Below are positions 1 to 27,420 of a stretch of 28,695 bases of DNA, piece after piece (position 1 is the stretch's first letter; each line of letters starts with the position of its first letter). Both the position numbers and the translations under genes were made by a program. Where the stretch lies: the IMG/VR virus record IMGVR_UViG_3300046010_004172, positions 1 to 28,695 of that record. The stretch is one strand, 5' to 3'. The notes beneath the pieces were generated by a model. That model was not told the DNA's origin. It made no database searches and worked only from the letters and a program-made list of their open reading frames with translations. This DNA is from a virus. Taxonomy: Duplodnaviria > Caudoviricetes.

Positions 1-3000
1 ATGCGGGCTTCGGTCGGCTCCTTGATGATGCCGGCAATATCCGTGTCCAGCATGCCCTGATCGATCAACTCCTGCGCCACCTTGGCCGGTTGCGTGATTG
101 CATCCGGATTGACCGCATACCAGAAGCCCGGATTGGGGTTCTGTATGGCCAGGCCATAGAGCGACAACGCCACCCGGTTCTTTTCGGCACGGGTGATGAC
201 CCGCTCGCGCTGCATCATGACCTGCGCCAGGATGTCGGCAGCGGCTTTTCCGGAGCCGGTACGGCGCTTGCTGGCCGGTCCCTTGACCGAGAAACCTTGC
301 CCCGTGCCCATGCCGCGCTCGGAGATCTCTGCGCTTTCACGCTGCAGCGGGATGTAATGCTGGTAGGCCGCTTCCCAGGCGTCGATGGTCTCCTGGGTTT
401 CCAGGCCTTCACGTACTAACAGGGCACGGGTTTCACGGAGGATCGCATCCACCTGGTTGGCAATCGCCTCCAGATCGGTGCGCACGCCCGCCGGCAGATT
501 GGCCAGATAATCCAGCGCATCCTGCGTCTTGATGCCAGAGCCGCCATCCGGGAACTGGTCCGGATTAACCCGAGCGTAATAGTCGTTGGCTTCCGGTGCG
601 TGACGGTTCCACAGATAGGTTTCCAGGTCACCGATGCTGATGCCGCGAGTCGACATGGCGTCCAGTAGCGGCTTGACCTCATTGACCTTGAAGTTGTTGG
701 TCTCGTATTCGGCCTTGCCGTGGTAGAGCGTTTCCTTTTGATAGGGATTCCAGGCATCCGAGGCATTGAGCTTTTCGACCACGCGCTTGGTGTCGATCTG
801 CTTGTCCGCCAGTTTGTAGATCCAGTCGTCCAGCTTGGCTTCGTCGGGCGCAGTCCAGTTCACCAGGGGCGTCTGGCCCAATACATTCTTGCGAGAAGAG
901 AACGGCGCATCCGGCTCGGCCACCATCATGCCATTACCCATACCACCACCACGGGCCAGCAGGGTTTGCTCGCGCAGGTAGTCGAATTCCGGGCTGGTGT
1001 CCGCCGTCACTCTGGGTACGTTGCGGCCACGAACCACGAACGGATCCGACATCCCGTAGGCGCCAATCTGCTCCGCCAGGCTACTGTAGTCGCCGTCCTC
1101 ATTGATGTGGATGGAGTCCATCACCAGGCCAGTCATTTTCATCAGAGCCGTGCGATCGGTCCCCACCGCAAAGGCCTTGGCGCCATTCAATGCTTTCAGC
1201 GCCTTGCGAATGCGCAGGGTGCGTCTTGATTGGCTGCTATCCTTGATGACGGATGACGGGATCGTCGTGACACCAAGCACCTTTTGGCTGGCCGCCACGG
1301 CAATCAGGGTCACCGCATCATTGTCGACCTCAATTTTCTTGGCTACATCCATCAGCGTCGCTGGGTTGTTGATGGTGTGGCTGGAATACTCGTTGGCCTT
1401 GTAGGGGGATACCTGCCCGAAGTCCTTTTCGTAGACGGCTACATTGCCATCTGGATAAATGTAACCGTACCGGTTGGTGTCGATGATGACGTGACCATTG
1501 CTGATCAGGTTCAGATCCTGCTCAAACTTCTTGGTCAGATTCACGTCCGCGTTCGACGGCATCGGGTTGGTCGACGGGTGGTTGTGCAACATGTAATAGC
1601 TGACAGCACCCGCTTTGCTGGCCGCCTTGGCCAGGTCCGTCAGGTACTTGTCGATGTCGCTGCCGACGATAACGGCAGAAGAGGATGGCAGCCTGCTGGA
1701 CAGGCCTACCTGGGAGACGATCTTTCCCTGTTGATCAAGGAAGAACAGGCGGAAGGTCTCGAAGCGCGGGTCACGGTAGACCTGCGCCAGGGTAGCGACG
1801 TCTTCTCTTGAATTTACGGTGTGTCCGACCAGGCTGACGCGCTGTCGGGCGGCGTAGGTGTCGGCAAGTCGGCGACCCAATACTCCCCGATCGGACCCCC
1901 GCAGAGACTCAACGGCGGCGGCTGCAGCTCGCTTCGCTGCCTGAGTCTTCGGCCCTGACTGTCCAGCCGGATCAGCATCAAGGAAGAGGTCGAGTTGTTG
2001 TCTGAAGAGGTCATCTTGTAATGGCTCCTGCAGGATGTTGCCCGTATCGGTTCCGAATGTACCACGATTATCCACCGACTTGATCTGGTTTGAGGTGAAC
2101 ACCGTGTAGGTGGTCGTGGTCGGCGTACCGCGTCCGTTGTTGTAATCATCCTTGACGTTGCGGATGATGGCGCCGTCATGTCCGCCAGCGCGTGCCTGCT
2201 CGATGACGTTGCTGGTTTTGCCGAGGTTCTGCGCGTCCCGCCATGTCTTGCCGCCTGCATCAATTTCCAGCGGATTCCTGAGATTCAGGAACGCATCCAG
2301 GACGCCTGGCTCTGCATTTTGATAGTCAAACGCCCGCCGATCATCCGCGTAGGAATTGGCGGTTTTCTTGGAAGAGGCGAACCAGTAAGCCCCTTCCCGG
2401 TAGCCGAAACCATAACGCTCGTACAGGGTCTTGAAGGTCGCGTCGTCCGCCATGAACCGCAAGTCGGGTGCGCCGTGATGTACGACACGCGGTTCACCGT
2501 TTTCGTCAGTCACCATGGAGACGGCAGGTATGGCTCCCTCTTCCTTGGCGTTGATGGCGTCGATCAATTCGCCTACACTAGTCTTATGGGGAAGGGCGAG
2601 CGCAGGCCCGGTGCCGGTTGACTGTACGATGGGATTAGAGCGCGAGCGTCCTGCGTATTTGGCCGCAACCGGCATCACCTCCATATCCACGATTTCATGA
2701 ACATAGAACTTGCGATGCTTGCCGCGCGGCAAGTCGTCGTGGTCTTTGATCGTGAGCTTTACTGCAAAAAGATCATCGCCATATTGCAGTGGGGCAATAA
2801 ATTTGTGAACGCCAAGGATGTTGGTGTCGTCTCCGGAATCAGGTTCTGAGGCTACTGGGACGCTTACCCTGATAATGGCCGGCATTTCATGTAATGCCGC
2901 CAAATGTATTCTTGCGTCGTCGCTTTTTGTGATTGCCGTACCACTGGTCGCCTTGTGCGTCATCACCCGCTTTGACACGATCAGTTTGTCTCCTGTCGCC

Positions 3001-6000
3001 TTGTTCAGCCAGCCATCGCTATTTGCTAGATTCTTGACGGCCCATGCGCGCGCGTCATCAACACTACCTCTAAAGTAATCTTCAGCCAAAACAACCGGTG
3101 ACATGGCTTGGTTTTTGTCGGCCTCAAAATCCCCAAACCACGCCTTGAATCGTGGTGTCCGCACCATCACCCATTGCTGCTCGGTTAGCTTGGATGATTT
3201 GCCGTTGGGCGCCTTCATCCACTGCGGCGTGCTCTCGTAACGGGCTTTGGTGTCCTCGTATTCTTTCTGTAGCTGCTGCTCGGTCGGTTCTCCGCGACTA
3301 AACTTTGCGGTGATCTCGACATCATCATCCGAGAAAATCACGTAGTTCATCTTGTCGCCGGTCTTGCCACCCGTCTGCCCCTCGGCGGGATAGCGAATGC
3401 CGCGTATGCCGAGCGAGTGCAGGTATTCGGAGGCGGCCTGGTCGGAACCCTGGACGACAGATAGCGAACCATAGAGTCCTTCACCGATCAGCACGTCATC
3501 CCGAACTGGCTTGATTGAAATGCCACTGCTCGGCTCATTAGCCTCCACGAATTGACGCACCTTCTTTATGACGCGCCTGACCTTCTCACTCTGCTCACTC
3601 AGCGGCTTGTGCCAGTCCAGGTATTCGTCCTCGGCGGGGGCGAGTTCGACTTGGTAGAGTTTGCCTTTATCTGTGTTGACCTGTACGGCTTCGCTCTTGG
3701 CTTTTGCTATAGCCTCCTTGAAAATAGGCTTCCAATTCTTGAATGCCCCTTTGGCCCGACTTCTTAATTCACTGACAAGGAGCGCTTGCGACTTAAAGCC
3801 TTTTCCAATGCCGGTATAGGCGTCCATGATGATCCGATCAACATCGGACGCATCACTATATTCAGACTGAGTGTTACTGAACTCTTTCCCATCAATCAAT
3901 AAAGTTGATTGTTGGCCAGCCAGCTTGTCCCTGTACCACTCACCTACTTCTTTGTCGCTGGAAAAGTACAGGCCATAACCGAAAGCCTGCGCGCCCTCGC
4001 CCGTGCCAATCTTGCTGGTGCTGAACTTGTCGAAGTCATGCGGGCCACCATGCCAGGCCACCATAAACATCGCCTGCCCCTTGCCGGGCTTTGTATTGCC
4101 CTGCGCAGCTCTGTGGATGGAGCGCAATAGATAGGCCAGATCCGCATCATTGAACTGGGCCAGCTTGACGAAGCCGCGCTGGTTCATCCAGTTACGGATG
4201 GCCCCGTAGAATTCCTGAATGGCGGTTTTGATCTTCTGCGGCAGGCTGGCATAGGCCTTCTTGCCCTGCACATGCGCCAGGAACTCGTCCACCAGGTAGC
4301 TGAACCGCTGGGTATCGCTAATCTTGCCATCCTTGCGCAATTCATCGGCCGTCGTGAAGTAGGCGTCCATATTGACGCCCTGCTTCGCGGCCAAGTCACG
4401 GATACCATCGGCCCGGCCTAGCTTGAAATAGAGTCGGGTGTAGGCTTGGCGCTTGGCCTTGCCGAACAGCGCATTGGCGCCGTAGTGATTGGATTCGTGT
4501 AGGATGGATTCTTCCACCTGCGCGAGCGACTTATGCTGATCCGCGACCAGAAAAATCTCGTCCCCACGATGTACCGCGATGACCGTGCCCGTCGCTCCAT
4601 CTTTGGCCGCCTGCTGGCGTATATCCGCCGGCAGTTCGGCTTCGGTGTCTACCGTCCGAATACTTACGTTGGCACTGAGTCCAAGACGACGCCCGATGCG
4701 AGTGGCCGCACGCTCCACGGCTTCACGACCGAGGACGGCACCCACTTTCTGCTGACCCGCCCGCCGCGCCTGCCTAAATAAGGGCAAGCCGCCCATGACC
4801 TTCTCTCGCATGGCGGGGGTGATAGTGAATGCCGGCTGCTCTGACTGGAACCCATAAACGTATTTCGCCGCCGCCGCTATTTCGTCCTTCTTTGCTGCCG
4901 GGTAGGCTTTCTCCATGCCGGAAATAGCCTCATCAAGAGATGATCCGCCCTCAAGAAAACTCTCGGCGGCATAGCGATACGCGCTATCGCCTTTGTATGT
5001 TTCTGCCGGAATGACAGATATATTGGCAGTCCCCACGCGCCCTCCGCCCAGCTTCTTCAGGACTTCATTGGCGACGGAGGGGACAATCTTATCGTAGAAG
5101 GTGCGCATGCCTTCGCCGCCGACTTTTAAGCCTTCTCCGGAAAACCCGCCGGAGTAAATGCCTCTATCAATGCTTGATCGTATTTTGTCGCCCAGTTCCT
5201 TGCCTATGTAGTCATCAACCCTGGTTGATGGCATGGTTTCATTGATGAGATAGTTGTCGTCAAACCCTTTGGCTTGCAGCAACACGTTGTCCTTATCTGT
5301 GTTTTCCCACGTTATGCCCGCAACCTGCCTTCTCAGGTCATACAAATCCGCATTCTGCTGGCCGCTGGCAAAGGCGATCTTGTCGAAGCCGTTTTCTGCG
5401 GCATAGCGGATAGCTCTTTTAATTCCAAGCGATACGACGGGCTTTGGGTCGGCGCCGATGAAAGGACCTTGAGGTACGCCCTGCTTGATGCGAACGCTGA
5501 TGTTGTTGTCGGGTGACCAATTCTTTTCGGCATAAGCATTGGCGTCAGCTTCTGTGGCAAATGATTGAACGACTGCGCCGTTACTTTTTTCCACCCGATA
5601 CTGAACGCCAACGCCTTTTCTGCGAGCGTCTTGTTGCCAATCTGACTGCAGCTCAGTTATGAACAGAACCTTATTGCCATCAGCATCCTGACGTTCGTCG
5701 AAACGAAGGTGGGCAAGGACGTTGGGTTCGTCCCAGTGTGATGAGCGGTAGCTTGTCTGGTCCTTCGCTTTTGCGTATCCAGCCATAGCACCATTGGCCC
5801 CGCGCTCACTGGCCCACGTCAACACGCCTCCAGTTGTGCTGCTCCGGTATAGATCGCCATCAGGCTGCCGTATCACAAATAGCCCATCATCGTTTTCTTC
5901 GACGGACCAGCCTTCCTTTGCGTTAGCTCGTTCTGGCAGCGTAATCAACAGCTCCCGGTAGTTCTCGCCGCCGGGGATGGTGTACTGGCTGAATTTGGTG

Positions 6001-9000
6001 GGCCGATTCTGCTTGTAATCATCGACCAGTTCGGCGATCTCCGATCTCACATCATCTGACACATCGATGTCTTTGATGTCGAGACGGCCATTTACGAGAT
6101 CCCGAGCTGCATCGGTGCTGCGGTCGTAGCCGAGGTTGTCTTCCTGCTCCAGGACTTGCTTGAGCCTGGCAATTGACTCCGGCTTTTGCTCGCCCTTAAT
6201 CACCTCATTCACCTGCACCCCGTTATCCGCCAGGAATGCAGCAATGTCGGCCTTGCTGGTCTTCTCCTTGCCCTTCAGCTTGAGGAAATCCTCGATACCG
6301 GTCCAGGCGATCTCGTCGGCCTTGATGCCGAGCTTGGCCTGGTTGCTGAACAGCCAGGCTCTCCACTGCGAGCCAGGCATGCTGTCCTGCTTGGCGGTGT
6401 CGAAACCGCGAGCGAGCTGGGAGTAGAAGGTGGGTGCACGACTGAATCGAATCTGATCCTGCCGGTTATCCTGCGCAAACAGGCCATCATCGGCCGGCGG
6501 TGCGTTGTTGGCGTTGCGCCGGCGCTGGCCTTCGCGCTGCGCTTCGGCTAGGGCTTCGCGGTCGGTGTTGGCGCGGTCGGCGGAGGTGGGTTCTCCGAAG
6601 AGTCCTGATTGAGCTTGCGCAGTTTCCGCAAGGTTATCCGGTCCTGCAGGCTGAGTGGCTGCTTCTTGAGGATTGCTTGAAACAGACTTCCCCCTGCTTC
6701 GCTTTGCCAGATTTTGTTGGCCTCTTCTTTCACGGTAGTTCTCCAGGCGTTTAACCAGATCTTCACGGGTGGCCCGTGGCGTTTCGCCGAACATATCGGT
6801 GGTGTCGCGGGTGGCTTCGTTATACGTGAAGTCCGCAAAGTCCGACAAGTCCTCGATGACCGCCTTGTTGCTGCGCGGGTTATCGGCAAACAGCCGGATG
6901 ATGTCATAGGCTCTGGGATCAATATCCAGATCCTGCTGCTCGGCAATCTGCTGCATGGTCAGATCGCGGCGCTTGCCGTTGATGATGGCCTTGGCTGCAT
7001 CCGCCAGCCAGGGACGGACATCAAACGCTCCCTGCCCTTTCAGTCGCGACACTTTCGGCGCCAACCGGGACAAAGTCGACATGACCAGCTTGGCTTCCGG
7101 GTCGACCGCCTGACTGTGCAGCCGGACCAACTCTTCGTTGTCGTAGGCTTTCTGGAAGACAGCGGAATTGAGTCGATCATGCGCCTGGCGATTGGGCGTG
7201 CCGTCCGCATCCAGTAAGCCGCCCTGCTCCGACTCCGGCATGGACCGCACAAACTGCAGCACGGTATTCCGGCCCAGTGTCCCGTCCTCGTCAAAGTCCA
7301 GCCCCGCCAGATCCAGTCGCTCCGCGTCGTTCTTAGCTTGCTCCACGGGTGACAGGCTGAGTCCGCCCGAGATATTCGATTCGTCACCGATGTCGGCGGT
7401 GATCTCGGGATCCGGCATGAGGCGCACCAGCACCGGGTTCTGCATGCCCTGAATGACTTCGGGGCTAATGCCATGCAGGTCATCCTGCTCCAGGTCGGCC
7501 CGGTACTGCTGGGCTGAGCCTTGTCGATAGGCTTTCTGCAGTCCAGCGATGCGGCCATTCCCGGCAATCGCGCGGGGTGCCTGGAGGGTTTGGTCACCAT
7601 ACTGGGCATTGACCGTGCCATCGGCATTGTTGGACGCCAGCACGCTGCCTGCTTCTACCACCGCATATTGAACGGGAATACGCCGCCCTTTGGCGGTGAC
7701 GGTGGTTTCCTTGCGGCCAAGCTGCGATTCCGGGACGGTGCCGCCCGCAATGACGGGCGCGCCTTCCGCGAAATTACGCGATGGACTCAATCGCAGATAA
7801 TCCGGATTGCCGGCAATGCTCTGCATCTGCTGGACCGAAGCCGGATTGGACCGGGTGCGGTTTTGCAGGATAGGGGTTAATGCAGGCTGGCCGACAGGAT
7901 CGACGGCCGCTGATGCGGGGGCAACGCCTCCGCCATCTCGATCAGGCTGTCCGCTCTCAAGTCGTACTCCTGCATCTCCAGTGCCCACTCCAGTTCCTGG
8001 TTCTGCTCCCGGAGCGAGATCAGTTCCTGCTGTAGCGCCTGCAACATTGCTTCCAATGCTTCCCGTGGGATTAGTGGCATTTAGCAGCCCTTCTTGCCCG
8101 GCCGTACTGGTTTCTTGGTTTTGCCTTTCATTGGCGATCTCCTGTGTGGGTGGAACTTCAAACGCATCGAGCGCGTCTTGCGCGTCGGTGAAGGTGCTAT
8201 GGGTCTGGCCCTGCGGATCGAGGATGGCGATGCGGCCGTCACCCAGATCATTGAGCGTGTAGCCCTGCTCCTTGAGCGAACCTAGCCCCGGCGTCGTGGC
8301 GGCAGGGTCGGGCGTGGGTTGGATTTCTTCGGCGCTTCCTGCTTGTCCTGCTTGTCCTGCAGGCGGCGCACTTGCGCTAATGGGATCTTGGGCATCAGTG
8401 GCTCCTGGTATGCCGGTGGAGGAAATGGTGGTGTCTTCGGGCTGGTCGGCCGGCATCGTCGCTGCTGCGGCAAGGCGCTGAGCCATGATGTCGCGGGCCT
8501 GCTTGGCGCGCTCCATGCCCGCTAGATTGGGATCGGTCTCGTTCTTCAGAATCTCCATGAACATGGGATTCTTGTTGTAGAGCGACTCGATCTTGTTCTC
8601 AGATGACCAGCGCTTGGCCGCTGCATCCGCCGCCTTTCCAAGCAGCACCTGGCCGCCGGTGCCCACTAAGGTGGCAACAGCCGTCTGCATCGCCGCAGAC
8701 GGGCGCTCAGCTATGAACTCCTTGGCTGTCTTGTCTGGGTTCAGCTCAACCCACTTGTCGAGATCCTGCAGGAATGTGGCAGCCTGCTCGCCCAGCATTT
8801 CAGGGACCAGCTGTTTGGCAAAGGTTTTCCAGAGCGCGTCGTTCGCTTTGATGCTGCCCAGCAGCTTGCTCATCGGGATGGCCTCAGTCCCCACCTCGAT
8901 AATGCCCTGCGTCGTCCCGTACAGCGCGGCTCGCTCAGGGCTTTTGCCGGCATCACGCGCTTCACCGTAGGACTGCCCGCCCGTCATCACGCCCATCGGG

Positions 9001-10124
9001 CCAAGCGCCATGAGCGGATTGCCCGTAACGACGGCCGCCGGAATTGTCATCAGGTTCTGGGTGATCGACTGCATGCCGGAGTACACGCCCGCCGCCAGGT
9101 CACTGTCCGCTTTTGGGGTCAGCCTTTCGGCAATGCTTTTCTGGCCTTGACGCGCTTTACTGTAGGTCTGAGCCAGCTGCTGCACTGGATCCTGCACGCC
9201 AAAGGCGTTAAAGACGGGTCCCGTCAGATATTTGTTGGTGGCTTCGGCGCCGGCCTGCAAAGTACCAAGAACGCCTTCACTGCCCCGATAAACACCGGAC
9301 AGCGCTGCGGATCCAAGATTCTTGGCGGTCTGGCCAGGGTTATTGACCACGCTTTTCGGATCCATCACCTGGTTGTAGGCGAAATCCTCCACCGCATTTC
9401 CGGCATCGGTCAGAAGATTCTTGCCGCGCTGCAGGAGCGAAGGCGGTTCAACGGGCGCTTGGGTCGGTCTGGGGGTTGCTGTCTGCGGCTGGCCGCTATC
9501 CGGTTTGCCCGCGACTGCATCCGCCACCTGAGCACCCACTTCACCATCCGGCACAAAGCCCTGCAGATCCAGTGGGCCAGCCTCTGGCGATTCTGGTGCT
9601 ATATCGGCACTCCCAAACGCCATCATCAGCTTGCGCGCATTGCGACGACGGGATCCGGTGGCGGCAACGCCGGGTCGCTCATATCCGGCCATAAAGGCAT
9701 CGGACGCTTCTTGATAATTGGTGGCCTGCTTGAGCTGCTCCAGGGCCGGCCGTTCGGTGGTCAGCAGCTCCTGCTTCAGGAACTGATAGTTGGCCTCCTC
9801 TGAATTGATATCCAAGCCCTTGTCGCGGGCAAAGGCTTCAAATTGCTGGCGACGTGGCCCGGTCCATTGCGCCCATCCATAGCCGCCACGGGATCCTGCC
9901 ACCGTCGGCTGGATCTCCTGCATATTCTTGAACCAGCCGGTCTCGGTGGCCAGATTGCCCACCACGCCGGCCGCATGATGCGGCTGCAGCTTTAAGTCGG
10001 GGTCGGTCGACAGTCGCTGCATGACCGACAGGCCAAGCCCGATACCCTGCTGCTTATCAGGCGCGGGGGCGGCATCAGATTCGGGTAGGCGCAAGCCGCC
10101 GTCAACAATGTCAAATACTGGCAT
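1..10124 (-). CDS. Giant polyvalent internal virion/ejection protein (>3370 aa, 3'-truncated by the window edge)
   Basis: ATG at 10124, 3 nt after the stop of the 463-aa gene. Hand translation stays open to the window edge (MPVFDIVDGG...DTDIAGIIKEPTEAR), which explains its absence from the ORF track. Motifs: AAGVVGNLATETG/GYGWAQWTG/YERPG (tail lysozyme), GNGRIAGL (DdrB-ParB), ELQSDW, HESNH, WHGGP and YHGAP (ART-like), HNHPSTNPMPSNAD (JAB). Confidence 0.93.
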   Translation of the reverse strand, partial: MPVFDIVDGGLRLPESDAAPAPDKQQGIGLGLSVMQRLSTDPDLKLQPHHAAGVVGNLATETGWFKNMQEIQPTVAGSRGGYGWAQWTGPRRQQFEAFARDKGLDINSEEANYQFLKQELLTTERPALEQLKQATNYQEASDAFMAGYERPGVAATGSRRRNARKLMMAFGSADIAPESPEAGPLDLQGFVPDGEVGAQVADAVAGKPDSGQPQTATPRPTQAPVEPPSLLQRGKNLLTDAGNAVEDFAYNQVMDPKSVVNNPGQTAKNLGSAALSGVYRGSEGVLGTLQAGAEATNKYLTGPVFNAFGVQDPVQQLAQTYSKARQGQKSIAERLTPKADSDLAAGVYSGMQSITQNLMTIPAAVVTGNPLMALGPMGVMTGGQSYGEARDAGKSPERAALYGTTQGIIEVGTEAIPMSKLLGSIKANDALWKTFAKQLVPEMLGEQAATFLQDLDKWVELNPDKTAKEFIAERPSAAMQTAVATLVGTGGQVLLGKAADAAAKRWSSENKIESLYNKNPMFMEILKNETDPNLAGMERAKQARDIMAQRLAAAATMPADQPEDTTISSTGIPGATDAQDPISASAPPAGQAGQAGSAEEIQPTPDPAATTPGLGSLKEQGYTLNDLGDGRIAILDPQGQTHSTFTDAQDALDAFEVPPTQEIANERQNQETSTAGQEGLLNATNPTGSIGSNVAGATAGTDLAPGAEPGTGVGTGDAGVRLESGQPDRDGGGVAPASAAVDPVGQPALTPILQNRTRSNPASVQQMQSIAGNPDYLRLSPSRNFAEGAPVIAGGTVPESQLGRKETTVTAKGRRIPVQYAVVEAGSVLASNNADGTVNAQYGDQTLQAPRAIAGNGRIAGLQKAYRQGSAQQYRADLEQDDLHGISPEVIQGMQNPVLVRLMPDPEITADIGDESNISGGLSLSPVEQAKNDAERLDLAGLDFDEDGTLGRNTVLQFVRSMPESEQGGLLDADGTPNRQAHDRLNSAVFQKAYDNEELVRLHSQAVDPEAKLVMSTLSRLAPKVSRLKGQGAFDVRPWLADAAKAIINGKRRDLTMQQIAEQQDLDIDPRAYDIIRLFADNPRSNKAVIEDLSDFADFTYNEATRDTTDMFGETPRATREDLVKRLENYRERRGQQNLAKRSRGKSVSSNPQEAATQPAGPDNLAETAQAQSGLFGEPTSADRANTDREALAEAQREGQRRRNANNAPPADDGLFAQDNRQDQIRFSRAPTFYSQLARGFDTAKQDSMPGSQWRAWLFSNQAKLGIKADEIAWTGIEDFLKLKGKEKTSKADIAAFLADNGVQVNEVIKGEQKPESIARLKQVLEQEDNLGYDRSTDAARDLVNGRLDIKDIDVSDDVRSEIAELVDDYKQNRPTKFSQYTIPGGENYRELLITLPERANAKEGWSVEENDDGLFVIRQPDGDLYRSSTTGGVLTWASERGANGAMAGYAKAKDQTSYRSSHWDEPNVLAHLRFDERQDADGNKVLFITELQSDWQQDARRKGVGVQYRVEKSNGAVVQSFATEADANAYAEKNWSPDNNISVRIKQGVPQGPFIGADPKPVVSLGIKRAIRYAAENGFDKIAFASGQQNADLYDLRRQVAGITWENTDKDNVLLQAKGFDDNYLINETMPSTRVDDYIGKELGDKIRSSIDRGIYSGGFSGEGLKVGGEGMRTFYDKIVPSVANEVLKKLGGGRVGTANISVIPAETYKGDSAYRYAAESFLEGGSSLDEAISGMEKAYPAAKKDEIAAAAKYVYGFQSEQPAFTITPAMREKVMGGLPLFRQARRAGQQKVGAVLGREAVERAATRIGRRLGLSANVSIRTVDTEAELPADIRQQAAKDGATGTVIAVHRGDEIFLVADQHKSLAQVEESILHESNHYGANALFGKAKRQAYTRLYFKLGRADGIRDLAAKQGVNMDAYFTTADELRKDGKISDTQRFSYLVDEFLAHVQGKKAYASLPQKIKTAIQEFYGAIRNWMNQRGFVKLAQFNDADLAYLLRSIHRAAQGNTKPGKGQAMFMVAWHGGPHDFDKFSTSKIGTGEGAQAFGYGLYFSSDKEVGEWYRDKLAGQQSTLLIDGKEFSNTQSEYSDASDVDRIIMDAYTGIGKGFKSQALLVSELRSRAKGAFKNWKPIFKEAIAKAKSEAVQVNTDKGKLYQVELAPAEDEYLDWHKPLSEQSEKVRRVIKKVRQFVEANEPSSGISIKPVRDDVLIGEGLYGSLSVVQGSDQAASEYLHSLGIRGIRYPAEGQTGGKTGDKMNYVIFSDDDVEITAKFSRGEPTEQQLQKEYEDTKARYESTPQWMKAPNGKSSKLTEQQWVMVRTPRFKAWFGDFEADKNQAMSPVVLAEDYFRGSVDDARAWAVKNLANSDGWLNKATGDKLIVSKRVMTHKATSGTAITKSDDARIHLAALHEMPAIIRVSVPVASEPDSGDDTNILGVHKFIAPLQYGDDLFAVKLTIKDHDDLPRGKHRKFYVHEIVDMEVMPVAAKYAGRSRSNPIVQSTGTGPALALPHKTSVGELIDAINAKEEGAIPAVSMVTDENGEPRVVHHGAPDLRFMADDATFKTLYERYGFGYREGAYWFASSKKTANSYADDRRAFDYQNAEPGVLDAFLNLRNPLEIDAGGKTWRDAQNLGKTSNVIEQARAGGHDGAIIRNVKDDYNNGRGTPTTTTYTVFTSNQIKSVDNRGTFGTDTGNILQEPLQDDLFRQQLDLFLDADPAGQSGPKTQAAKRAAAAAVESLRGSDRGVLGRRLADTYAARQRVSLVGHTVNSREDVATLAQVYRDPRFETFRLFFLDQQGKIVSQVGLSSRLPSSSAVIVGSDIDKYLTDLAKAASKAGAVSYYMLHNHPSTNPMPSNADVNLTKKFEQDLNLISNGHVIIDTNRYGYIYPDGNVAVYEKDFGQVSPYKANEYSSHTINNPATLMDVAKKIEVDNDAVTLIAVAASQKVLGVTTIPSSVIKDSSQSRRTLRIRKALKALNGAKAFAVGTDRTALMKMTGLVMDSIHINEDGDYSSLAEQIGAYGMSDPFVVRGRNVPRVTADTSPEFDYLREQTLLARGGGMGNGMMVAEPDAPFSSRKNVLGQTPLVNWTAPDEAKLDDWIYKLADKQIDTKRVVEKLNASDAWNPYQKETLYHGKAEYETNNFKVNEVKPLLDAMSTRGISIGDLETYLWNRHAPEANDYYARVNPDQFPDGGSGIKTQDALDYLANLPAGVRTDLEAIANQVDAILRETRALLVREGLETQETIDAWEAAYQHYIPLQRESAEISERGMGTGQGFSVKGPASKRRTGSGKAAADILAQVMMQRERVITRAEKNRVALSLYGLAIQNPNPGFWYAVNPDAITQPAKVAQELIDQGMLDTDIAGIIKEPTEAR
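1814..2014 (-). CDS. Possible overprinted small ORF (66 aa) in the +1 frame of the giant gene
   Basis: AGGAG at 2029-2025, 10-nt spacer, ATG at 2014 (MTSSDNNSTSSLMLIRLDSQG...WSDTP). Lies in the ART2-JAB linker. The SD could be a by-product of in-frame CAG-GAG codons. Confidence 0.3.
   Translation of the reverse strand: MTSSDNNSTSSLMLIRLDSQGRRLRQRSELQPPPLSLCGGPIGEYWVADLPTPTPPDSASAWSDTP
6548..6733 (-). CDS. Putative overprinted small ORF (61 aa) in the +1 frame of the giant gene
   Basis: GGAG at 6744-6741, 7-nt spacer, GTG at 6733: MKEEANKIWQSEAGGSLFQAILKKQPLSLQDRITLRKLRKLNQDSSENPPPPTAPTPTAKP. Lies in the low-complexity linker after the ParB region. Confidence 0.5.
   Translation of the reverse strand: MKEEANKIWQSEAGGSLFQAILKKQPLSLQDRITLRKLRKLNQDSSENPPPPTAPTPTAKP
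7877..8080 (-). CDS. Overprinted coiled-coil small protein (67 aa) in the +1 frame of the giant gene
   Basis: ATG directly follows the TAA of the 16-aa ORF. Codons in this frame are mostly G/C-ending (CAG CAG GAA CTG ATC TCG CTC CGG GAG CAG AAC), while the giant frame switches to A/T-ending codons (GCA GGA ACT GAT...GGA GCA GAA CCA GGA ACT GGA). Heptad-like LEAMLQALQQELISLREQNQELEWAL. Confidence 0.7.
   Translation of the reverse strand: MPLIPREALEAMLQALQQELISLREQNQELEWALEMQEYDLRADSLIEMAEALPPHQRPSILSASLH
8081..8131 (-). CDS. Overprinted 16-aa basic peptide MKGKTKKPVRPGKKGC
   Basis: AGGAG at 8143-8139, 7-nt spacer, ATG at 8131. Its TAA abuts the ATG of the 67-aa ORF (TAAATG). Confidence 0.55.
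   Translation of the reverse strand: MKGKTKKPVRPGKKGC
8282..8395 (-). CDS. Putative overprinted 37-aa basic peptide MPKIPLAQVRRLQDKQDKQEAPKKSNPRPTLPPRRRG
   Basis: AGGAG at 8406-8402, 6-nt spacer, ATG at 8395, TAG at 8284-8282. Same +1 frame, in a Pro/Ala/Gly linker of the giant ORF. Confidence 0.5.
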   Translation of the reverse strand: MPKIPLAQVRRLQDKQDKQEAPKKSNPRPTLPPRRRG

Positions 10125-10127
10125 GAG

Positions 10128-11519
10128 TTAGTTCACCGGGACGGTTGGATAGAACTTATTGCCCACGGCATAGCCTTGCAGCGTCTTGCCTTGGTATTGC
10201 ATGGCTCCGAATTTCCCCTGGCTCGCCGCGTAAGAGGCATCCTGCAGGGGGATATCCTTATTGCTGAACATGATGCTTTGCACGGCATCAATATGATTGT
10301 TTCGTCGCGTCTGAAGGGCGGGGGAAATGAGCGGCTTGCCCATGCTATCTGTCTCGGTAGTCGGGTAGGCTACCTCCGCTAATTGCTGGGCTGTTTTGAC
10401 GTCGAACTTGTTGGCTTTTCCAGTTTTGCTGGTTCTACCAACACTACCCAGCCCCTTCGCATCTGCGTCGGCGTAGTTCTTTTCCTGCAACGATTGCTCG
10501 GTATTGAGCTTCTCCCGGCGCAATTCGGTCAGGGCGCGCTCGGCCTCTTCCTTGGCCTTGCCCTGGCTTTTCTTGCTGAGATATTCGAGACGCTTGATCT
10601 CGTCACCCACCTGACGCGAGCGGATCTGGTCCTGCTCATTGGCCGAGATCGGCTTATCCGGTCCAAACGCCTTGGCGCGCAGATAGCCTTCCAGTGCCTC
10701 CCGATTTTTGGGGGTCTGCACATAGCGAGAGAGCGTGCCGACCGCATCCAGTGGGCGCGCAATGTCGCTCTGCTGCATGATCGTCACCGGGTCCATCGGG
10801 TCGTTGCTGCCGTTGGCGGTATAGGGCGCGGTATAGGCGGCATACTGGCCATCGGCGTCCACGCCTTCTACGGTCAGGAGTGGCACATAGCCTTGCGGGG
10901 TTTGCTGAAAGCCGGCTAATTGCTTGCCGGTCACCCGGAATTCCTTACCGCTCATCTCATCCTTGCCGACACCGCCCAGGTTACGGGCGAGCTTTTGCTG
11001 ATAGGCCGGGGCCAAGACTTTCAACGCTTGCGGATCGTTGGGGTTAAGCTGGCCGGACTTGAGTCGCTCGGAAATCTCCTTGGCTTGGGCCGTGTAGTTC
11101 GCATCCCCCAGCAGGCCGACATCCAGACCAAAGCCCTGCAGCGCTTCCAGGTCACTGGGATCCGCTCCCTGCGTCTCCATCTTCTTCAGCCGAAGCTGAA
11201 TGTCAGGAAACTGGGCTTGTAGCTGACTGCGGCGCTGCTCTTCTTTAGCGGCATCCAGCTTGATCTGGTCGGTCTGCGATTCCAGATCAAACGCCCGCTC
11301 CTTCATGCCCACTTCCTTGGACTTGATGGTGTTATCGAACTCCTGGTTCTTGGCCTGCGCCTCGTACCAGCGGTTCTGGGCTTCCTGCCCGGCCCGCAGA
11401 CGCTCCGCCTCGGCCCGCCGCAAGTCGCGGTCGACGTAGGAGTCATAAAGTTTGTTGACGGACTGCAGCCCCGAGGTCAAACCCTCGGTAAAGCCGCGCA
11501 TTGCAAAGCCGTTGGCCAT
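10128..11519 (-). CDS. Internal virion / DNA ejection protein (463 aa)
   Basis: GGAG SD upstream. N-terminal GFAMRGFTEGLTSG Gly-rich amphipathic segment followed by coiled coils. Sits directly upstream of the giant ejection protein, as in podovirus ejection modules (inference from position). Confidence 0.75.
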   Translation of the reverse strand: MANGFAMRGFTEGLTSGLQSVNKLYDSYVDRDLRRAEAERLRAGQEAQNRWYEAQAKNQEFDNTIKSKEVGMKERAFDLESQTDQIKLDAAKEEQRRSQLQAQFPDIQLRLKKMETQGADPSDLEALQGFGLDVGLLGDANYTAQAKEISERLKSGQLNPNDPQALKVLAPAYQQKLARNLGGVGKDEMSGKEFRVTGKQLAGFQQTPQGYVPLLTVEGVDADGQYAAYTAPYTANGSNDPMDPVTIMQQSDIARPLDAVGTLSRYVQTPKNREALEGYLRAKAFGPDKPISANEQDQIRSRQVGDEIKRLEYLSKKSQGKAKEEAERALTELRREKLNTEQSLQEKNYADADAKGLGSVGRTSKTGKANKFDVKTAQQLAEVAYPTTETDSMGKPLISPALQTRRNNHIDAVQSIMFSNKDIPLQDASYAASQGKFGAMQYQGKTLQGYAVGNKFYPTVPVN

Positions 11520-11589
11520 AGTGAAATCTCCAGCAATGCCAGTGTTTTACCGCATCGCTTCAGGCGTTTGGGAACTACGATTTACCAAC

Positions 11590-11611
11590 AAAAAGCCCGC
11601 GCGAGGCGGGC
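11590..11611 (-). terminator. Rho-independent terminator
   Basis: Minus strand GCCCGC-CTCGC-GCGGGC followed by TTTTT, just after the 219-aa gene stop. Confidence 0.75.
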
Positions 11612-11618
11612 CTTGTGG

Positions 11619-12278
11619 TTAGGTGAGAAGGTCGTAAAGCGGTCGCTGGTCGTCGGGTGGCTTACTGGCCAGTCCCTGCTGGACGCGGGCGATATCGTCG
11701 GGGAATTGCTGCTGCATCTGGTGGATCTGTGCCAGGCCCTGAATGGCCTGCTGCACTTCTTGCTGAGTCAGCTCGCGGGGCTTGCCACCCTGCTGCTCCG
11801 GCACACGGCCCTCGGTCAGCATGGCCTCGTAGGGTTCGCGGGACGGTTGACCCTCCTCGGTGACGGGCTGCACCAACAGCTTGACTTGCATGGTGTCGCG
11901 CCCGGTCGGGATCAGATCGGCAATCTGCACATCACCCACCCTTTCCTGCTCGTTCAGGGGGGATCCAATCGACTGGCCAATGATCGGCTTCAGCGCCAAA
12001 GACAGCGCCTGCAACGTCTCCGGGTTACGAAACGCCGCTTCGCCCTGGCTCTGGAACGCCTGCCCGGCTTTCTGCAACTGCTGCAGCGCGGGGCCGACAT
12101 TGGGATTGGCCACCAGGCTCATCGCCGTTTCGGCGGTCTTGTCGGCGTCTTCATCCATCCTGTCATCGCCGGCATACGCTGCCAGCATAGGGGGCTGCTC
12201 GGGTCGCTGCGGGTCCTGCCGGGGCGGTGCCGGCGGCATGGCCTGCTGCGGGGTTACGGACGCGAGTCCTGGGTTCAT
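11619..12278 (-). CDS. Putative internal virion protein (219 aa), partly paralogous to the 463-aa protein
   Basis: GGAGG SD and ATGA overlap with the upstream gene. Gln/Pro-rich. Central region aligns by eye with residues ~150-265 of the 463-aa protein. Confidence 0.75.
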   Translation of the reverse strand: MNPGLASVTPQQAMPPAPPRQDPQRPEQPPMLAAYAGDDRMDEDADKTAETAMSLVANPNVGPALQQLQKAGQAFQSQGEAAFRNPETLQALSLALKPIIGQSIGSPLNEQERVGDVQIADLIPTGRDTMQVKLLVQPVTEEGQPSREPYEAMLTEGRVPEQQGGKPRELTQQEVQQAIQGLAQIHQMQQQFPDDIARVQQGLASKPPDDQRPLYDLLT

Positions 12279-12826
12279 GGGGTGCCTCCGATAAATGCGC
12301 CCCAGCCATTCATGACGCCATTGAGGGCCTGCTTGAACCCATCAGAGGTCTGGCTATAGCTGGATGACAAGAGGTTGCGGGTTGGGGTTTTGGCAAAGAC
12401 CATGGGGCGGTCTTTCAGGATGTCAGGCATCGCGTTTTGCTCATAGCTGTCCTTGATGCTCGCTGCGCCCAATCCATTCCCGGCATAGTTGTCCATCTTC
12501 TGCTCTAGCGTGCTGTCGTCCTTCTCGGCGATCACCGAGTTCTCGCCCAGCACCTGGTTGGCCGAGACGGATGCCTTGGCTGCTTTGCCAATGGCCTGCT
12601 CACCGCCGGGCGGATTGTCCATCGGCGGGTCCTTGGTGTACTCCTTGTACCCGGCCAATCCAGCGCCCGCGGCCGTGCCGATCAGCGTACCGATGGCTTC
12701 ATTCTTGGCTTCCGACTCCTTGGCGCTGGTTTCGTACTGGTCCCAGATCCGGCGATTTTCGACATCACCCAAGCGGTCCAGATTGCGCAGGCCCATCATG
12801 CCGTAATTGAATCCTACGTTGTTCAT
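12275..12826 (-). CDS. Putative internal virion protein (183 aa)
   Basis: ATGA-coupled to both neighbours. Gly/Ala hydrophobic stretch AIGTLIGTAAGAGLAG is typical of ejection proteins. Confidence 0.7.
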   Translation of the reverse strand: MNNVGFNYGMMGLRNLDRLGDVENRRIWDQYETSAKESEAKNEAIGTLIGTAAGAGLAGYKEYTKDPPMDNPPGGEQAIGKAAKASVSANQVLGENSVIAEKDDSTLEQKMDNYAGNGLGAASIKDSYEQNAMPDILKDRPMVFAKTPTRNLLSSSYSQTSDGFKQALNGVMNGWGAFIGGTP

Positions 12827-13272
12827 ACGCCGGCAAACCTCATGTCACGTTGCGCGCTGGCCAAACCAAAGCGCGCCTGGTTCTTGATGCCCACCTGGCT
12901 GGATGCGCTGGTCAGGGCTTGCTGCTGCGCCATCGCGGCTTCCGCCTCGGGGGTCATCTGGACGCCCATGCGCCCCAGCGTGCGGGACTGAATGCCAGGG
13001 GCTAGATTGGGGCCGGACAGCGCCTTATCGACCTGCCCCAGGCCCTTCACCATCAAACCGCCTCGGGCAAAGTCGGCCTGCTGATTGGCAAAGCCGCGCT
13101 GCTGTTGCAACGCATTGTTGAAGAGTTTCTCGGACATCATGTAACGCGAAAAGGCCGCGTTAGCAGCCGGCGTGTTCTCGGCGATCATCTGCTGACCGAT
13201 GTCGTAATTGCCCTGCTGCAATGGACCCAGTCCTTTAGGGGGTGCAGCCCCACCACTTCCGCCCATGCCCAT
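12823..13272 (-). CDS. Putative internal virion protein (149 aa)
   Basis: AGGAG SD. Gly/Gln/Met/Ala-rich helical protein in the ejection cluster. Confidence 0.7.
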   Translation of the reverse strand: MGMGGSGGAAPPKGLGPLQQGNYDIGQQMIAENTPAANAAFSRYMMSEKLFNNALQQQRGFANQQADFARGGLMVKGLGQVDKALSGPNLAPGIQSRTLGRMGVQMTPEAEAAMAQQQALTSASSQVGIKNQARFGLASAQRDMRFAGV

Positions 13273-13281
13273 GTTCGTCTC

Positions 13282-14076
13282 CTATTTCTTGCCGGCGCTA
13301 TACATGCCCATGCCCAGGCTCATCATCGAGCCACCCAATTGACCCATAGCCTGATTGGCCGCGATGTTGTTCTGGACCTGGGCGTTGATGCGTGCTGCCT
13401 GATTGCTGGCTGCGTTCTGGCCGCCGCCGGTCACCAGGTTCAGGCCTGTGCCCAGTCGCTCCTGATAATCCCCAAAGCGCGACAAGGCCTGATCACGGAA
13501 ACCGCCGACCCGCTGCGTTTGCTGGTCCAGTGCCTGACCCATTTGGCCCCGACGTTGCCCATACTCGTTGAGATAAGCCATCCGGCCTTGAGCATTGGCG
13601 CCCCGCATGGCCACATCCAGCCCATTGGCGGTGGTGCCCATCGCGGCCAGTGCCTGTCCGGATCCCGGTCCACCCGAGCGATTCGCCATCGTCGTCATGC
13701 CCTGCTGGAGATTGGGCATCTGCTGCCACATTTGATTGACGCTGCGATCCGCGGCCCCTTGGTAATTGCTATCGGCATCCAAGCCGCGCAGCTCCTGCCC
13801 CAATTCATTGGTGCGCTGGTTGGCCTGCTTGAGGTAGCCCAGGTCGTCCTTGAGTCGCCGATTCATCATCGGGTCAAGTTGCTGCTGCCAGAAGCGCCCC
13901 TGCTCGTAAGCCTGGCGATTGACCGATGCCGCTTTGAGTTCTTCGGGGGTGGGTCCCCAGTTATCGACTGGGCCACTGAATGCGCCCGCTGCACCGGCGG
14001 CAGATACTCCAAGGCCTACAGTCCCAATACCAACGGCGGCAATGGTCGCCGCTGACACGCCTGCAAATACCATCAC
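13282..14076 (-). CDS. Putative DNA ejection/pilot-type internal virion protein (264 aa)
   Basis: GTGA overlap with the upstream gene. Hydrophobic Gly/Ala N-terminus, Gln/Asn-rich helical body and Gly/Met-rich C-terminus. Confidence 0.75.
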   Translation of the reverse strand: MMVFAGVSAATIAAVGIGTVGLGVSAAGAAGAFSGPVDNWGPTPEELKAASVNRQAYEQGRFWQQQLDPMMNRRLKDDLGYLKQANQRTNELGQELRGLDADSNYQGAADRSVNQMWQQMPNLQQGMTTMANRSGGPGSGQALAAMGTTANGLDVAMRGANAQGRMAYLNEYGQRRGQMGQALDQQTQRVGGFRDQALSRFGDYQERLGTGLNLVTGGGQNAASNQAARINAQVQNNIAANQAMGQLGGSMMSLGMGMYSAGKK

Positions 14077-14546
14077 ACTGCTCCCGGCGCCGGCAGCGCC
14101 TTGATAAATTCGTCGTATTCTTCAAACGTCTTGCAGCAGAAGGTCGACTCCGGATCTTCCGGTATGCCGTCTTCATGCGCATAGGCGCAAAACCATTCCA
14201 CGTCGGTCAATGCAATCAGGGCGCGCTGGGTGCCGGGTTGCGTCACCCAGACATTCGGCGCTTCCACCTCGGTCTTGTTGCCATCCTGATCGACCACCAG
14301 GCATCGACCACTGAGCGCCACGGTGAAATGCTCCTGCTTGTGGACGAGGGTCACGATGCAGGATCCAGCCGGCGCAAAAGCCCGCCGACCAAACAGCCCT
14401 TTAGCCTGGTAATGCCAGACCGGTGGCTCGAAGGTGGTGTCCAGTTCCGACAAAGCCTGCGCCAGCTTGGCGAAGTTCTGCCGGTTATCGACGGCGATAT
14501 CCCCCTCTCGGACCTGAATCAGCTCAAGCACGCAGCACCCGCTCAT
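14073..14546 (-). CDS. Cupin-like phage protein
   Basis: HYQAKGLFGRRAFAPAG...HKQEH...EAPNVWVTQPGTQR matches a common phage cupin-like pattern. Start uncertain (ATG 14546 or GTG 14531); the track start at 14627 overlaps the upstream gene too far. Confidence 0.7.
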   Translation of the reverse strand: MSGCCVLELIQVREGDIAVDNRQNFAKLAQALSELDTTFEPPVWHYQAKGLFGRRAFAPAGSCIVTLVHKQEHFTVALSGRCLVVDQDGNKTEVEAPNVWVTQPGTQRALIALTDVEWFCAYAHEDGIPEDPESTFCCKTFEEYDEFIKALPAPGAV

Positions 14547-14916
14547 AGACGTTCGCCACCGATTGCCAGCCAGACGACTTTTGGAATCCCGGTCGATTGC
14601 TCCACATGACGATGCGGTCGAAGCCATGCTCGATGGCGATCTCGTCCACCTGGTCCTGGAAGGTTTCGATGTTGTCCTGGCCTCGCGCGTAGGCCACCCA
14701 TAGGAACATCTCCGGTCGGCCGTTAAAGGCGTTGATCTGGGACTGCACGACGATGAAACCGGGGTCGCCGGTGTAGAGGTAGGCCTTGCCCGTCACGCAC
14801 GCGCTGTACACGTCCTCGGGCCGCCAGGGCGCGTCGATCTTGCGCCGGGTGTGGTCGAGGCCAGGCCGAATCTCGTCCCAGCACTCCCGTATGTCTTGGA
14901 GGATTAGTTGGCTCAT
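14524..14916 (-). CDS. Phage protein with GNAT-like pattern (~130 aa)
   Basis: Likely start MSQLILQDIRECW at 14916. MFLWVAYARG...IAIEHGFDRIVMWSNRPGF resembles the small GNAT-fold proteins found between tail and ejection genes in podoviruses. Confidence 0.7.
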   Translation of the reverse strand: MSQLILQDIRECWDEIRPGLDHTRRKIDAPWRPEDVYSACVTGKAYLYTGDPGFIVVQSQINAFNGRPEMFLWVAYARGQDNIETFQDQVDEIAIEHGFDRIVMWSNRPGFQKSSGWQSVANVYERVLRA

Positions 14917-20058: not shown

Positions 20059-20067
20059 AACCTACCC

Positions 20068-20325
20068 CTAGCTCATGTTCATGCTGCGGGCGGTTTCCCA
20101 CCAACTCGCTCCGTTCCAGATGAACGCAACCGTATAGGCAATAGCCGCGTCCCCGGTGATCCTATAAGTAATGCTGCGCCCGACAACCTCAACATCTTTC
20201 CAGGCCCGCAAGGCGCCGTTATCCAGCGGGAAGTCTAGCCCTGACTGACCGTTCTCTGGTGGCAGCAGCGTCGGATCAACTTTTTTGATGATACCGGCGA
20301 ATTTGTTGATGTCGATTAAAGTCAT
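20068..20325 (-). CDS. Small chimeric ORF (85 aa): nozzle-like N-terminus plus fibre-like C-terminus
   Basis: Likely start MTLIDINKFAGIIKKVDPTLLPPENGQSGLDFPLDNGALRAW, 10 nt after the spike stop; it aligns with the nozzle N-terminus. Ends in YTVAFIWNGASWWETAR, like fibre C-terminal F-x-[YW]-[DN]-G-x-x-W-x-E motifs. Confidence 0.6.
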   Translation of the reverse strand: MTLIDINKFAGIIKKVDPTLLPPENGQSGLDFPLDNGALRAWKDVEVVGRSITYRITGDAAIAYTVAFIWNGASWWETARSMNMS

Positions 20326-20335
20326 ATTACGGCGC

Positions 20336-23365: not shown

Positions 23366-23366
23366 C

Positions 23367-23753
23367 TTAATCCTCTGCGACAGTCACTTCAGGAACAACC
23401 CGGATGCGATCTTTAAAGTCATCGGGGTCAGGGGCAAGCGTCATTATATCCGCTCCGTGTGACACCGTGGCTGGCACTTCAGCCTGGATGTCCCATACAT
23501 ACTTTCCAGGGGCCAGTAGCGCTGTCATTGCGGGAGGCACTCGGATAATCGCTTTCCGCTCAACAATAAGATCTGCGGGATCGTCCCCCACGGTAGACAC
23601 GACCTGTAGCGCAGGCGGTTCGTCAAAGTTCTCCCGCATCGTGAAAGTGTGAGTGAACCCAGTGATGTCCGTGGACTCGTCGTATTGGATTTCAAGGTAG
23701 AACGAGTCCCCGACCCGCATGTCATCGGCAAAATATTTGGAGGATGTGCTCAC
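23367..23753 (-). CDS. Small beta-sandwich tail protein (BppU-N-like, 128 aa)
   Basis: GDSFYLEIQY...DITG...TALLAPGKYVWDIQ pattern is common in phage fibre-attachment domains. Lies immediately upstream of the spike. Confidence 0.7.
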   Translation of the reverse strand: MSTSSKYFADDMRVGDSFYLEIQYDESTDITGFTHTFTMRENFDEPPALQVVSTVGDDPADLIVERKAIIRVPPAMTALLAPGKYVWDIQAEVPATVSHGADIMTLAPDPDDFKDRIRVVPEVTVAED

Positions 23754-23756
23754 GAC

Positions 23757-24452: not shown

Positions 24453-24516
24453 GTAAGGTTCCTGCTACGGGAAAGTAGCGTCATCACGACGCGAAAAAAG
24501 CCGTCATCTCGACGGG
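24453..24516 (-). promoter_or_regulatory. Terminator plus GTCGTGATGAC hairpin plus RBS leader (copy 2)
   Basis: Minus strand CCGTCGAGATGACGG-C-TTTTTT-CGCGTCGTGATGACGC-TACTTTCCCGTAGCAGGAACCTTAC-ATG. Confidence 0.7.
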
Positions 24517-25499: not shown

Positions 25500-25512
25500 G
25501 GATCCGCTCCAT

Positions 25513-25572: not shown

Positions 25573-25577
25573 GAGAC

Positions 25578-25994: not shown

Positions 25995-26011
25995 AGATAT
26001 TCCTCGAAATG

Positions 26012-26039: not shown

Positions 26040-26052
26040 GATAGGGGATCGA

Positions 26053-27415: not shown

Positions 27416-27420
27416 CGCGG

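Follow-up and report, generated by a model that had tools for sequence, protein, structure and literature searches.

Junction tags of a giant phage polyvalent protein covary with its embedded predicted zinc peptidase

We analysed IMG/VR virus record IMGVR_UViG_3300046010_004172 (Duplodnaviria; Caudoviricetes) over its entire 28,695 bases, hereafter the window, with a focus on the giant polyvalent protein encoded on its minus strand. The domains of this protein, the terminal position of its gene in the virion operon, the swapping of modules between fixed ends, the location of the switch points at a short peptide tag and the use of one tag spelling per protein were all observed directly. We found that the spelling of the tag covaries with the clade of a predicted zinc peptidase embedded in the same chain. 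Because modules are swapped at a tag whose spelling follows the peptidase type, the tag likely marks self-cutting sites, and we assign a probability of roughly 0.5 to the reading that the embedded zincin recognises and cuts the tags, releasing the exchangeable modules of an ejected polyvalent protein. An earlier annotation of the same letters (the original prediction) had listed the domains and overlooked both the module shuffling and the junction tags, the features of greater interest.

The minus-strand frame at 3..10124 translated into 3374 residues with zero stops and was open at the contig edge, confirming the uninterrupted frame of more than 10 kb that had been proposed. It was recorded solely as a 3′-open frame and was for this reason missing from the track of closed open reading frames. 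A database protein, P0002, is 3978 residues long and its N-terminal 3374 residues are letter-identical to the window frame; by translation and this match the window holds the first 3374 of 3978 codons. The C-terminal end of P0002 carries LPD38 at 3668-3860 (PF18857, 132 bits), in agreement with the claim that the last part of the frame precedes such a domain. The domain order and coordinates of the original prediction were correct, and Phage_lysozyme2, ddrB-ParB, LPD3, ART-PolyVal and RadC all matched Pfam above cut-off, which verified the segments named lysozyme, DdrB-ParB and JAB. The Pfam and PHROG domains, together with LPD38 in P0002, supported its identification as a phage polyvalent protein. 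The protein has the traits of that class (a chain of 3978 residues, matches to six Pfam families and two further modules supported by their predicted fold, and a late virion-gene setting) as well as those of the 933W/phi24B gp47 type (a scaffold ending in LPD38, in a phage with an N4-gp56-type capsid protein), and is an ordinary member of this known class.

Unrelated modules within one protein terminate in the same tag, whose consensus in the window protein is hydrophobic-x-F-S-R. It was found as I-R-F-S-R at residues 1225-1229 (6438..6452, minus strand, as are all features of this gene), a crossover point against the relatives L006, P0004 and P0013; by junction comparison as A-K-F-S-R at 2273-2277 (3294..3308); and as A-P-F-S-S-R-K at 3073-3079 (888..908), which reads F-S-N-R-R in relatives. 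Off-consensus junctions were P-L-F/R-Q before the peptidase (residues 1781-1787; 4764..4784) and A-M-F/M-V before ART1, the first of the two ART modules. Two anchors independent of the tag, the end of the GNAT-fold module and the end of ART-PolyVal, were both present in 47/120 homologues (counts over 120 refer throughout to the 120 homologues listed). Only pairs with unrelated sequence over the downstream 120 residues were used (46/47 proteins), which ruled out that the tag is the N-terminus of duplicated modules. Within-protein agreement at tag positions 2-4 was 1.25, compared with 0.38±0.12 after permutation (46 proteins, 22 clusters, p 0.001), and 1.27 compared with 0.40 at 16 clusters, with an excess at every dereplication level. 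In addition, a 2789-residue homologue from Escherichia phage PhiR12_3 contained [FY]-S-R four times (0.7 expected), three of them central and beside module borders.

When close relatives were compared, the ends of the protein were constant and the central modules differed in kind and order. The order in the window is ParB, GNAT, peptidase A, ART, LPD3-ART, JAB, and that in L006 is ParB, peptidase B, GP88-like, JAB, GNAT, ART; in P0004 the ART precedes the GNAT, and P0013 and P0006 show further orders. The window and L006 share 96% nucleotide identity in ParB, 89% in JAB and 94% in the C-terminal part, and differ in the lysozyme (an SLT transglycosylase in L006 in place of the tail lysozyme of the window), the peptidase, the GP88-like module and the position of JAB before the GNAT-fold module. 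P0004 has one ART cassette more than L006 at an F/Y-S-N-R site, with the site at both cassette ends. The comparison of L006 with P0013 gave the same pattern, an ART cassette inserted with a tag on each side, and a perfect 17-nucleotide repeat was found at the ends of the L006 cassette. Among eight relatives, 30 of 53 order-switch points were no more than 15 residues away from a tag, against an expectation of 3.6, a count in which the switch points are mutually non-independent and the tag pattern was derived from the same proteins. Many of the missed switch points were inserts inside the GNAT-fold module, and some were the off-consensus junctions of the window. Furthermore, contigs of other runs (4 of the 24 listed runs, compared at 90% likeness) broke off beside three junctions, at 6437/6445 (X18) and with loose ends at 4768 and 869 (X15). 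Short joins in these contigs, which might stem from other organisms, were disregarded. P0002 alone has all six Pfam families among the homologues, in line with the suggestion that the exact domain combination may be new; this novelty is weak, as the modules are reshuffled among relatives whose shared DNA is 89-96% identical. The GP88-like cassette of L006 (L006:5252-6712) is Cys-rich (PF17338, 25.2 bits) and is possibly an iron-sulphur enzyme. P0011 and P0015 each contain 9-12 ART-type ends and so resemble the ART array of 12 copies in Iyer 2017.

The relation between tag and peptidase was analysed in an out-of-sample set. A peptidase profile gave 5091 matches among 1.84 billion representatives, and from the best 150 of these 5091 we kept 123 new proteins of at least 1000 residues, chosen by peptidase likeness alone. 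FSR was the most enriched tripeptide in these proteins, with 246 occurrences against 42 expected, and was found in 112/123. Away from the peptidase there were 129 against 33, and when both ends were masked too, the central region still held 80 against 15, in 52 of the 107 proteins of at least 1800 residues; each of the six scaffold groups with n ≥ 3 showed the central excess. An origin of the excess from the peptidase borders or the conserved LPD38 site alone was rejected, since masking lowers but does not abolish it. Other peptidase clades carry Q, S-x-x-R/FSP or FSN tags. At the ART end, S-R tags occurred in 19/32 cases versus 4/38 in three other clades, with Q in 6/7 for clade 0 and S-x-x-R in 26/26 for clade 1. 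On the same scaffold with peptidase B, FSN was found at 25 central sites in 10 proteins and FSR at 3. The window and L006 constitute a natural experiment in which the scaffold is 98% identical in amino acids, the peptidase differs and the tag differs. Moreover, a protein without LPD38 from a cultured cyanophage of 209 kb (Dolichospermum phage Dfl-JY45, XAI97106.1) contains a peptidase of the window's clade together with five F-[SA]-R tags. Collectively, tag spelling covaries with peptidase clade.

The zincin-like metallopeptidase occupies residues 1790-2016 (4077..4757) and was recognised by motif, H1876-E1877-x-x-H1880 plus E1947, and by predicted fold. The H, the E and the later E are invariant in 28/28 sequences, and a model built from these 28 sequences had a predicted local distance difference test score (pLDDT) of 88.1. 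The top rows of its VIA comparison were zincin/metallopeptidase-type folds (Z 6.3-4.5), with matches to 1oz9 (Z 6.3, root-mean-square deviation (rmsd) 3.2 over 85 aligned residues), 3e11 (Z 6.0), jannalysin (Z 5.2, rmsd 2.8 over 68) and N4 gp50 2157-2366 (Z 4.5, rmsd 5.3 over 166). The model thus supports a predicted metallopeptidase of zincin fold. The HExxH peptidase of the original prediction therefore held for motif and fold and not for a Pfam match, and residues 1790-2016 had no PDB sequence match. HExxH was present in 92/120 homologues, compared with about 5 in shuffles, and HE-x2/3-H in 107/120. We also noted split forms (L017:1685-15229 and L046:3-12209), in which a tagged gene without peptidase lies downstream of a peptidase gene of the matching clade, and many peptidase-less proteins begin with a similar M-x-x-x-x-C-L stretch.

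We consider the following course most likely. As its homologues suggest, the polyvalent protein would be packaged into the phage head and leave it during infection by ejection, whereupon its N-terminal lysozyme would open the cell wall. The end regions would carry the protein across the envelope, as in general podovirus ejection. The zincin may then cut at the tags. This step would most probably follow ejection, because the ends likely serve in packaging and as the channel. Cleavage at the predicted sites near 1227, 2275 and 3075 would yield four pieces, lysozyme-ParB, GNAT-peptidase-ART1, LPD3-ART2-JAB and the scaffold, and the junctions at 1783, 2020 and 2698 may stay uncut or be cut otherwise. 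The released ParB, GNAT-fold, ART, LPD3 and JAB modules might act on host targets, and the multi-target anti-defence payload of the original prediction would likewise be a conjecture. The coding sequence of the tag offers short homology, so that recombination there would give products that can still be processed. Autoprocessing by such peptidases has been predicted, with processing of P1 DdrB cited, in sections 8 and 33 of Iyer 2017 (PMC5512222). A wider proposal, to which we give slightly less than an even chance, is that ejection proteins are self-processing polyproteins in which a clade-specific tag serves as both cut site and crossover point, forming a recombinase-free cassette array that can be read in proteins including the 933W type. 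The site code belonging to this joint reading, with F-S-R, F-S-N-R, S-x-x-R and x-x-Q as the clade tags, is equally tentative.

Several observations weigh against cutting at the tags by the embedded zincin. Three of the six central junctions of the window (residues 1783, 2020 and 2698) are off-consensus, including both that flank the peptidase. No central FSR was found in 55 of the 107 longer out-of-sample proteins, clade 1 also has some FSR (12 against 5.6), and Achromobacter phage CF418P1 has the peptidase clade of the window and no clear tags. Two peptidase-like domains occur together in many proteins, and an LPD1-type clade also goes with FSR/FSK, which makes it ambiguous which domain reads the tag. 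The fold matches of the peptidase are middling (VIA Z at most 6.3, Foldseek E 0.1 or worse). HE-x2/3-H is lacking in 13/120 homologues, yet many of these retain tags, and a matching-clade peptidase gene lay upstream of peptidase-less tagged genes in only 2 of the 8 loci listed. Peptidase clade and tag may simply be co-inherited. In addition, recombinant N4 virion RNA polymerase (vRNAP), which has an HExxH domain, remains full length according to the available text of PMC13492108, and N4 vRNAP, ArdC and TraC1 are given as unprocessed in the sections available of Iyer 2017 (PMC5512222).

Three other explanations were considered. The tags could be bound rather than cut, acting as docking or pause signals for module-wise folding, packing or threading through the tail, which we regard as unlikely though the strongest of the three. 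Every covariation result shows recognition rather than cutting, and section 8 of Iyer 2017 (PMC5512222) and the text of PMC13492108 describe the HExxH region of N4 vRNAP as required for encapsidation, with the protein packaged whole. The terminal residues also form short strands in the GNAT-fold model and stand-alone versions of that module stop after P-L-F, indicating that the motif is partly structural. A pure binder, however, could lose the zinc motif and the catalytic Glu, which were retained in 123/123 of the out-of-sample proteins, and the third ligand, which was kept in 28/28 sequences.

A more doubtful explanation gives the tags no role as peptide and attributes them to DNA recombination, in which cassette insertion leaves short repeats behind and homogenises them. 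Cassettes are gained and lost with duplicated tags, and some junction pairs are linked by recent exact repeats of 17 nucleotides (L006, L002) or 26 nucleotides (L009). Identical tag codons were used at 36/61 positions against 26.3 expected (22 genes), but the excess also exists between genes (ratio 1.29, versus 1.37 within genes), and the serine codon class (AGY versus TCN) differs in 7/20 within-gene pairs. Since the excess of identical codons within genes is close to that between genes and the serine class switches, the tag signal lies mainly at the peptide level. Moreover, the six junctions of the window share at most 6 nucleotides in register, and none of the listed families of repeats or inverted repeats coincides with them, so that site-specific recombinase sites were rejected there. 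The association of tag and peptidase clade also persists when the scaffold differs and extends to the 209-kb cyanophage. Least probable in our estimation is cutting of the tags by a protease of the host or a different one of the phage, with the embedded peptidase linked by descent and aimed at peptidoglycan or host proteins. The homologues lacking HE-x2/3-H fit this explanation, and the phi24B preprint (bioRxiv 10.64898/2026.04.10.717836), in its accessible part, suggests that the gp47 peptidase acts on peptidoglycan. It is opposed by the comparison of the window with L006, in which the scaffolds are nearly identical and the host group is probably the same while the tags differ with the peptidase, and by the finding that FSR goes with the peptidase clade of the window in phages of unrelated hosts.

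The remaining modules follow from the N-terminus. The Phage_lysozyme2 tail lysozyme lies at residues 45-167 (9624..9992; PF18013, E 2.8e-24) and is followed by a Gly/Ala-rich, predicted membrane-crossing region that is swapped among relatives (residues 277-503; 8616..9296; phrog_9880, E 4.9e-16). The latter had been called a Gly/Ala hydrophobic region, and the phrog_9880 match agrees with that; strong hydrophobicity was not found, as no segment exceeded 1.3 Kyte-Doolittle over 19 residues. Its G+A fraction was 0.26 versus 0.20 for the whole protein, and there was no strong transmembrane peak. The region is exchangeable: an 11,971-base X15 contig has 1645 other bases at window 8441-9616, and L006 and P0004 carry other versions. 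The DdrB-like ParB with its C-terminal extension spans residues 752-1135 (6720..7871; Pfam ddrB-ParB at 752-901, PF18763, E 2.2e-17) and has Arg858 at the motif position. ART-like module 1 (residues 2021-2274; 3303..4064) was below the ART-PolyVal cut-off (PF18760, E 4.3e-4, 21.5 bits versus 31.2), matching in its N-terminal part only and containing a large insert, so the ART assigned here earlier retains the H and Y motifs as its support; it accompanies the peptidase in P0020.

ART-PolyVal domain 2 (residues 2540-2687; 2064..2507) scored 60.6 bits with PF18760 against the cut-off of 31.2. Of the H-Y-D triad, H and Y are present in both ARTs and no acid was found at the aligned last strand, in a rough alignment of 10 rows in which several homologues lack this acid too. 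An N-terminal accessory element of ART2 lies at residues 2278-2334 (3123..3293), since a 64% identical piece directly precedes the ART core in L003. Between them is a swappable slot with LPD3 and no flanking tags (2507..3133; Pfam match 2736-3059, residues 2356-2463; PF18798, E 3.8e-10), in place of which one X18 contig has 565 other bases. LPD3 and ART2 are thus both present as predicted, but a split of the catalytic core by LPD3 was not borne out: LPD3 sits between the short accessory element and the ART2 core, which are nearly adjacent in L003. RadC/JAB with a C-terminal extension (residues 2699-3060; 945..2030; Pfam 2771-2881, PF04002, E 3.4e-10, 40.3 bits versus 22.1) adjoins ART2 without a consensus tag and has an intact motif (E2789, H2847, H2849, S2851, D2860). 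The start of the conserved C-terminal scaffold, leading to LPD38, occupies 3..887 (phrog_14770, phrog_616) and is the part 98% identical to L006 in amino acids.

The GNAT-fold module at residues 1230-1783 (4776..6437) belongs to no Pfam family and was delimited by homologue alignment and predicted fold. We found 3132 homologues among 7990 candidates, with His1463, His1472, Arg1474, Glu1491, Gln1493 and Asp1495 invariant in the alignment and hypervariable inserts falling between conserved blocks. A model of residues 1229-1785 from 100 sequences had a pLDDT of 86.9. Its best VIA match was ICL2 609-764 (Z 9.4, rmsd 3.5, 149 aligned), followed by matches such as NatD (Z 7.7, rmsd 3.4 over 135) and AtaT (Z 7.7); acyltransferase folds made up most of the 50 VIA rows, and rows on model range 85-147 were matches to a helical insert. 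The model therefore supports a GNAT fold, with middling Z, for what had been called GNAT-like. There was no match in Pfam, in PDB sequences or in Foldseek at E 0.001, and an ESM Atlas search returned three unnamed clusters only, all under 0.9. The stand-alone versions carry a terminal Gly/Ala-rich tail of 15-45 residues. Section 11 of Iyer 2017 (PMC5512222) describes a GNAT family of phages whose members neighbour ART domains.

The polyvalent gene closes a podovirus virion operon of same-strand genes. Directly upstream are six genes of 463, 219, 183, 149, 264 and 184 residues (10128..14627, minus strand; 93% nucleotide identity to L099), which had no Pfam or PHROG match except for the cupin-like 184-residue gene and are likely further internal or ejected proteins. 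The virion genes at 15671..28404 (minus strand), identified with Pfam, PHROG and NCBIfam, encode an Ig-domain fibre, phrog_511, a GDSL spike, two SU10-type adaptors, an N4-gp56-type major capsid protein (PF13252, E 1e-94; TIGR04387, 65.8 over a cut-off of 60) and a likely scaffold. The GDSL-esterase tail spike-like gene (1009 residues with repeats, window 20336-23365, phrog_11541) includes a stretch of lower GC, with a fraction of 0.49 at 22001-23000. The two adaptor genes are adjacent (window 23757-25209), and dual tubeA adaptors are reported for Bcep22-like phages in the accessible text of PMC10386132. In a set of 50,697 phage records there were 332 matches to the pre-LPD38 region and 405 to the capsid protein, mostly from Vibrio, 933W-type, Ralstonia and Burkholderia phages and in every case below 60% identity. 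The 24 runs listed as holding this DNA were all lake, freshwater or hydrocarbon metagenomes, of which nine may be the source of the record, and no RNA run was among them.

L006 belongs to a Methylococcaceae metagenome-assembled genome (MAG, G001), where, as part of an integrated element, it is flanked by a transporter gene and smpB and preceded by an integrase and an HTH_17 gene; this one MAG suggests a temperate phage of a methanotroph. The locus (L099:4588-6512 plus L006:74-13870, G001:C33) comprises the integrase and HTH_17 gene, the six upstream genes, an intact polyvalent gene of 4213 residues and smpB, and its match to the window ends at the start of the 184-residue gene. The capsid gene was not found in G001 with the window query, and G001 may be incomplete. 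The locus is either a deleted prophage retaining the injection block or an assembly artefact. A tmRNA as integration site was rejected, as none lies beside smpB and the tmRNA is on another contig.

The closest description is that of polyvalent proteins in Iyer 2017 (PMC5512222), whose sections list chains of more than 2000 residues, lysozyme, DdrB-ParB, zincin metallopeptidase, ART, LPD3, LPD38 and RadC in a virion-gene context, as in the window. Mosaicism of orthologues and autoprocessing were already proposed there (sections 5, 8, 19 and 33); its main text, as available, gives no junction or cleavage motif. RadC is confined there to conjugative elements (section 33, with prophages mentioned in section 16), whereas it occurs here in 7/120 homologues. 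The phi24B gp47/933W type shares the LPD38-ending scaffold and the capsid family and differs in that its scaffold is about 30% identical and in having LPD5, LPD1 and MuF-C instead of the ParB, GNAT-fold, ART and JAB of the window. In the accessible part of the preprint cited above (bioRxiv 10.64898/2026.04.10.717836), gp47 was detected in virions by mass spectrometry and suggested to be an ejection protein. The 'DarB-like' gp69 of Bcep22/JC1 has an N-terminal lysozyme, LPD3 and LPD38 and is virion-associated by mass spectrometry in the available text of PMC9144972; packaging and ejection of the window protein, asserted in the original prediction, draw their support from homology to these two virion-detected proteins. 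Unlike the window protein, gp69 has a methylase-helicase pair. The comparison made earlier with DarB and DdrB accordingly applies to the ddrB-ParB part and not to DarB proper, as neither the adenine methylase nor the SF2 helicase of P1 DarB had a Pfam or NCBIfam match in the window protein or P0002. P1 DdrB combines DdrB-ParB with a zincin peptidase and is reported to undergo processing before packaging (Iyer 2017, PMC5512222, section 8). It is far smaller than the window protein and has no LPD38 scaffold.

Polyproteins of eukaryotic RNA viruses likewise consist of a single chain with an embedded protease and a lineage-specific short site repeated at module borders. They differ in having an unrelated protease and domains and proven cutting, whereas in the window cutting is predicted and the modules are exchanged cassettes. 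This analogy was also drawn in section 34 of Iyer 2017 (PMC5512222). A description of the tag was not found in the open literature, subscription papers lying outside that search, and no cleavage site is given in the available parts of PMC9503650, PMC10386132 and PMC10172136. The protein class itself is known, and the site code has apparently been unreported until now.

The splitting of polyvalent proteins by embedded zincins has been proposed since 2017. The tags pinpoint candidate sites with single-residue precision and lead one to expect cross-specificity between clades, which makes this older idea directly testable. They explain how the payload can be reshuffled without damage to the delivery scaffold, and they offer objective borders for delimiting domains in the search for new injected effectors, an example being the GNAT-fold module, which has more than 3000 homologues and no Pfam family. 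If the proposal is true, module borders and released effectors would be readable from thousands of uncharacterised giant phage proteins.

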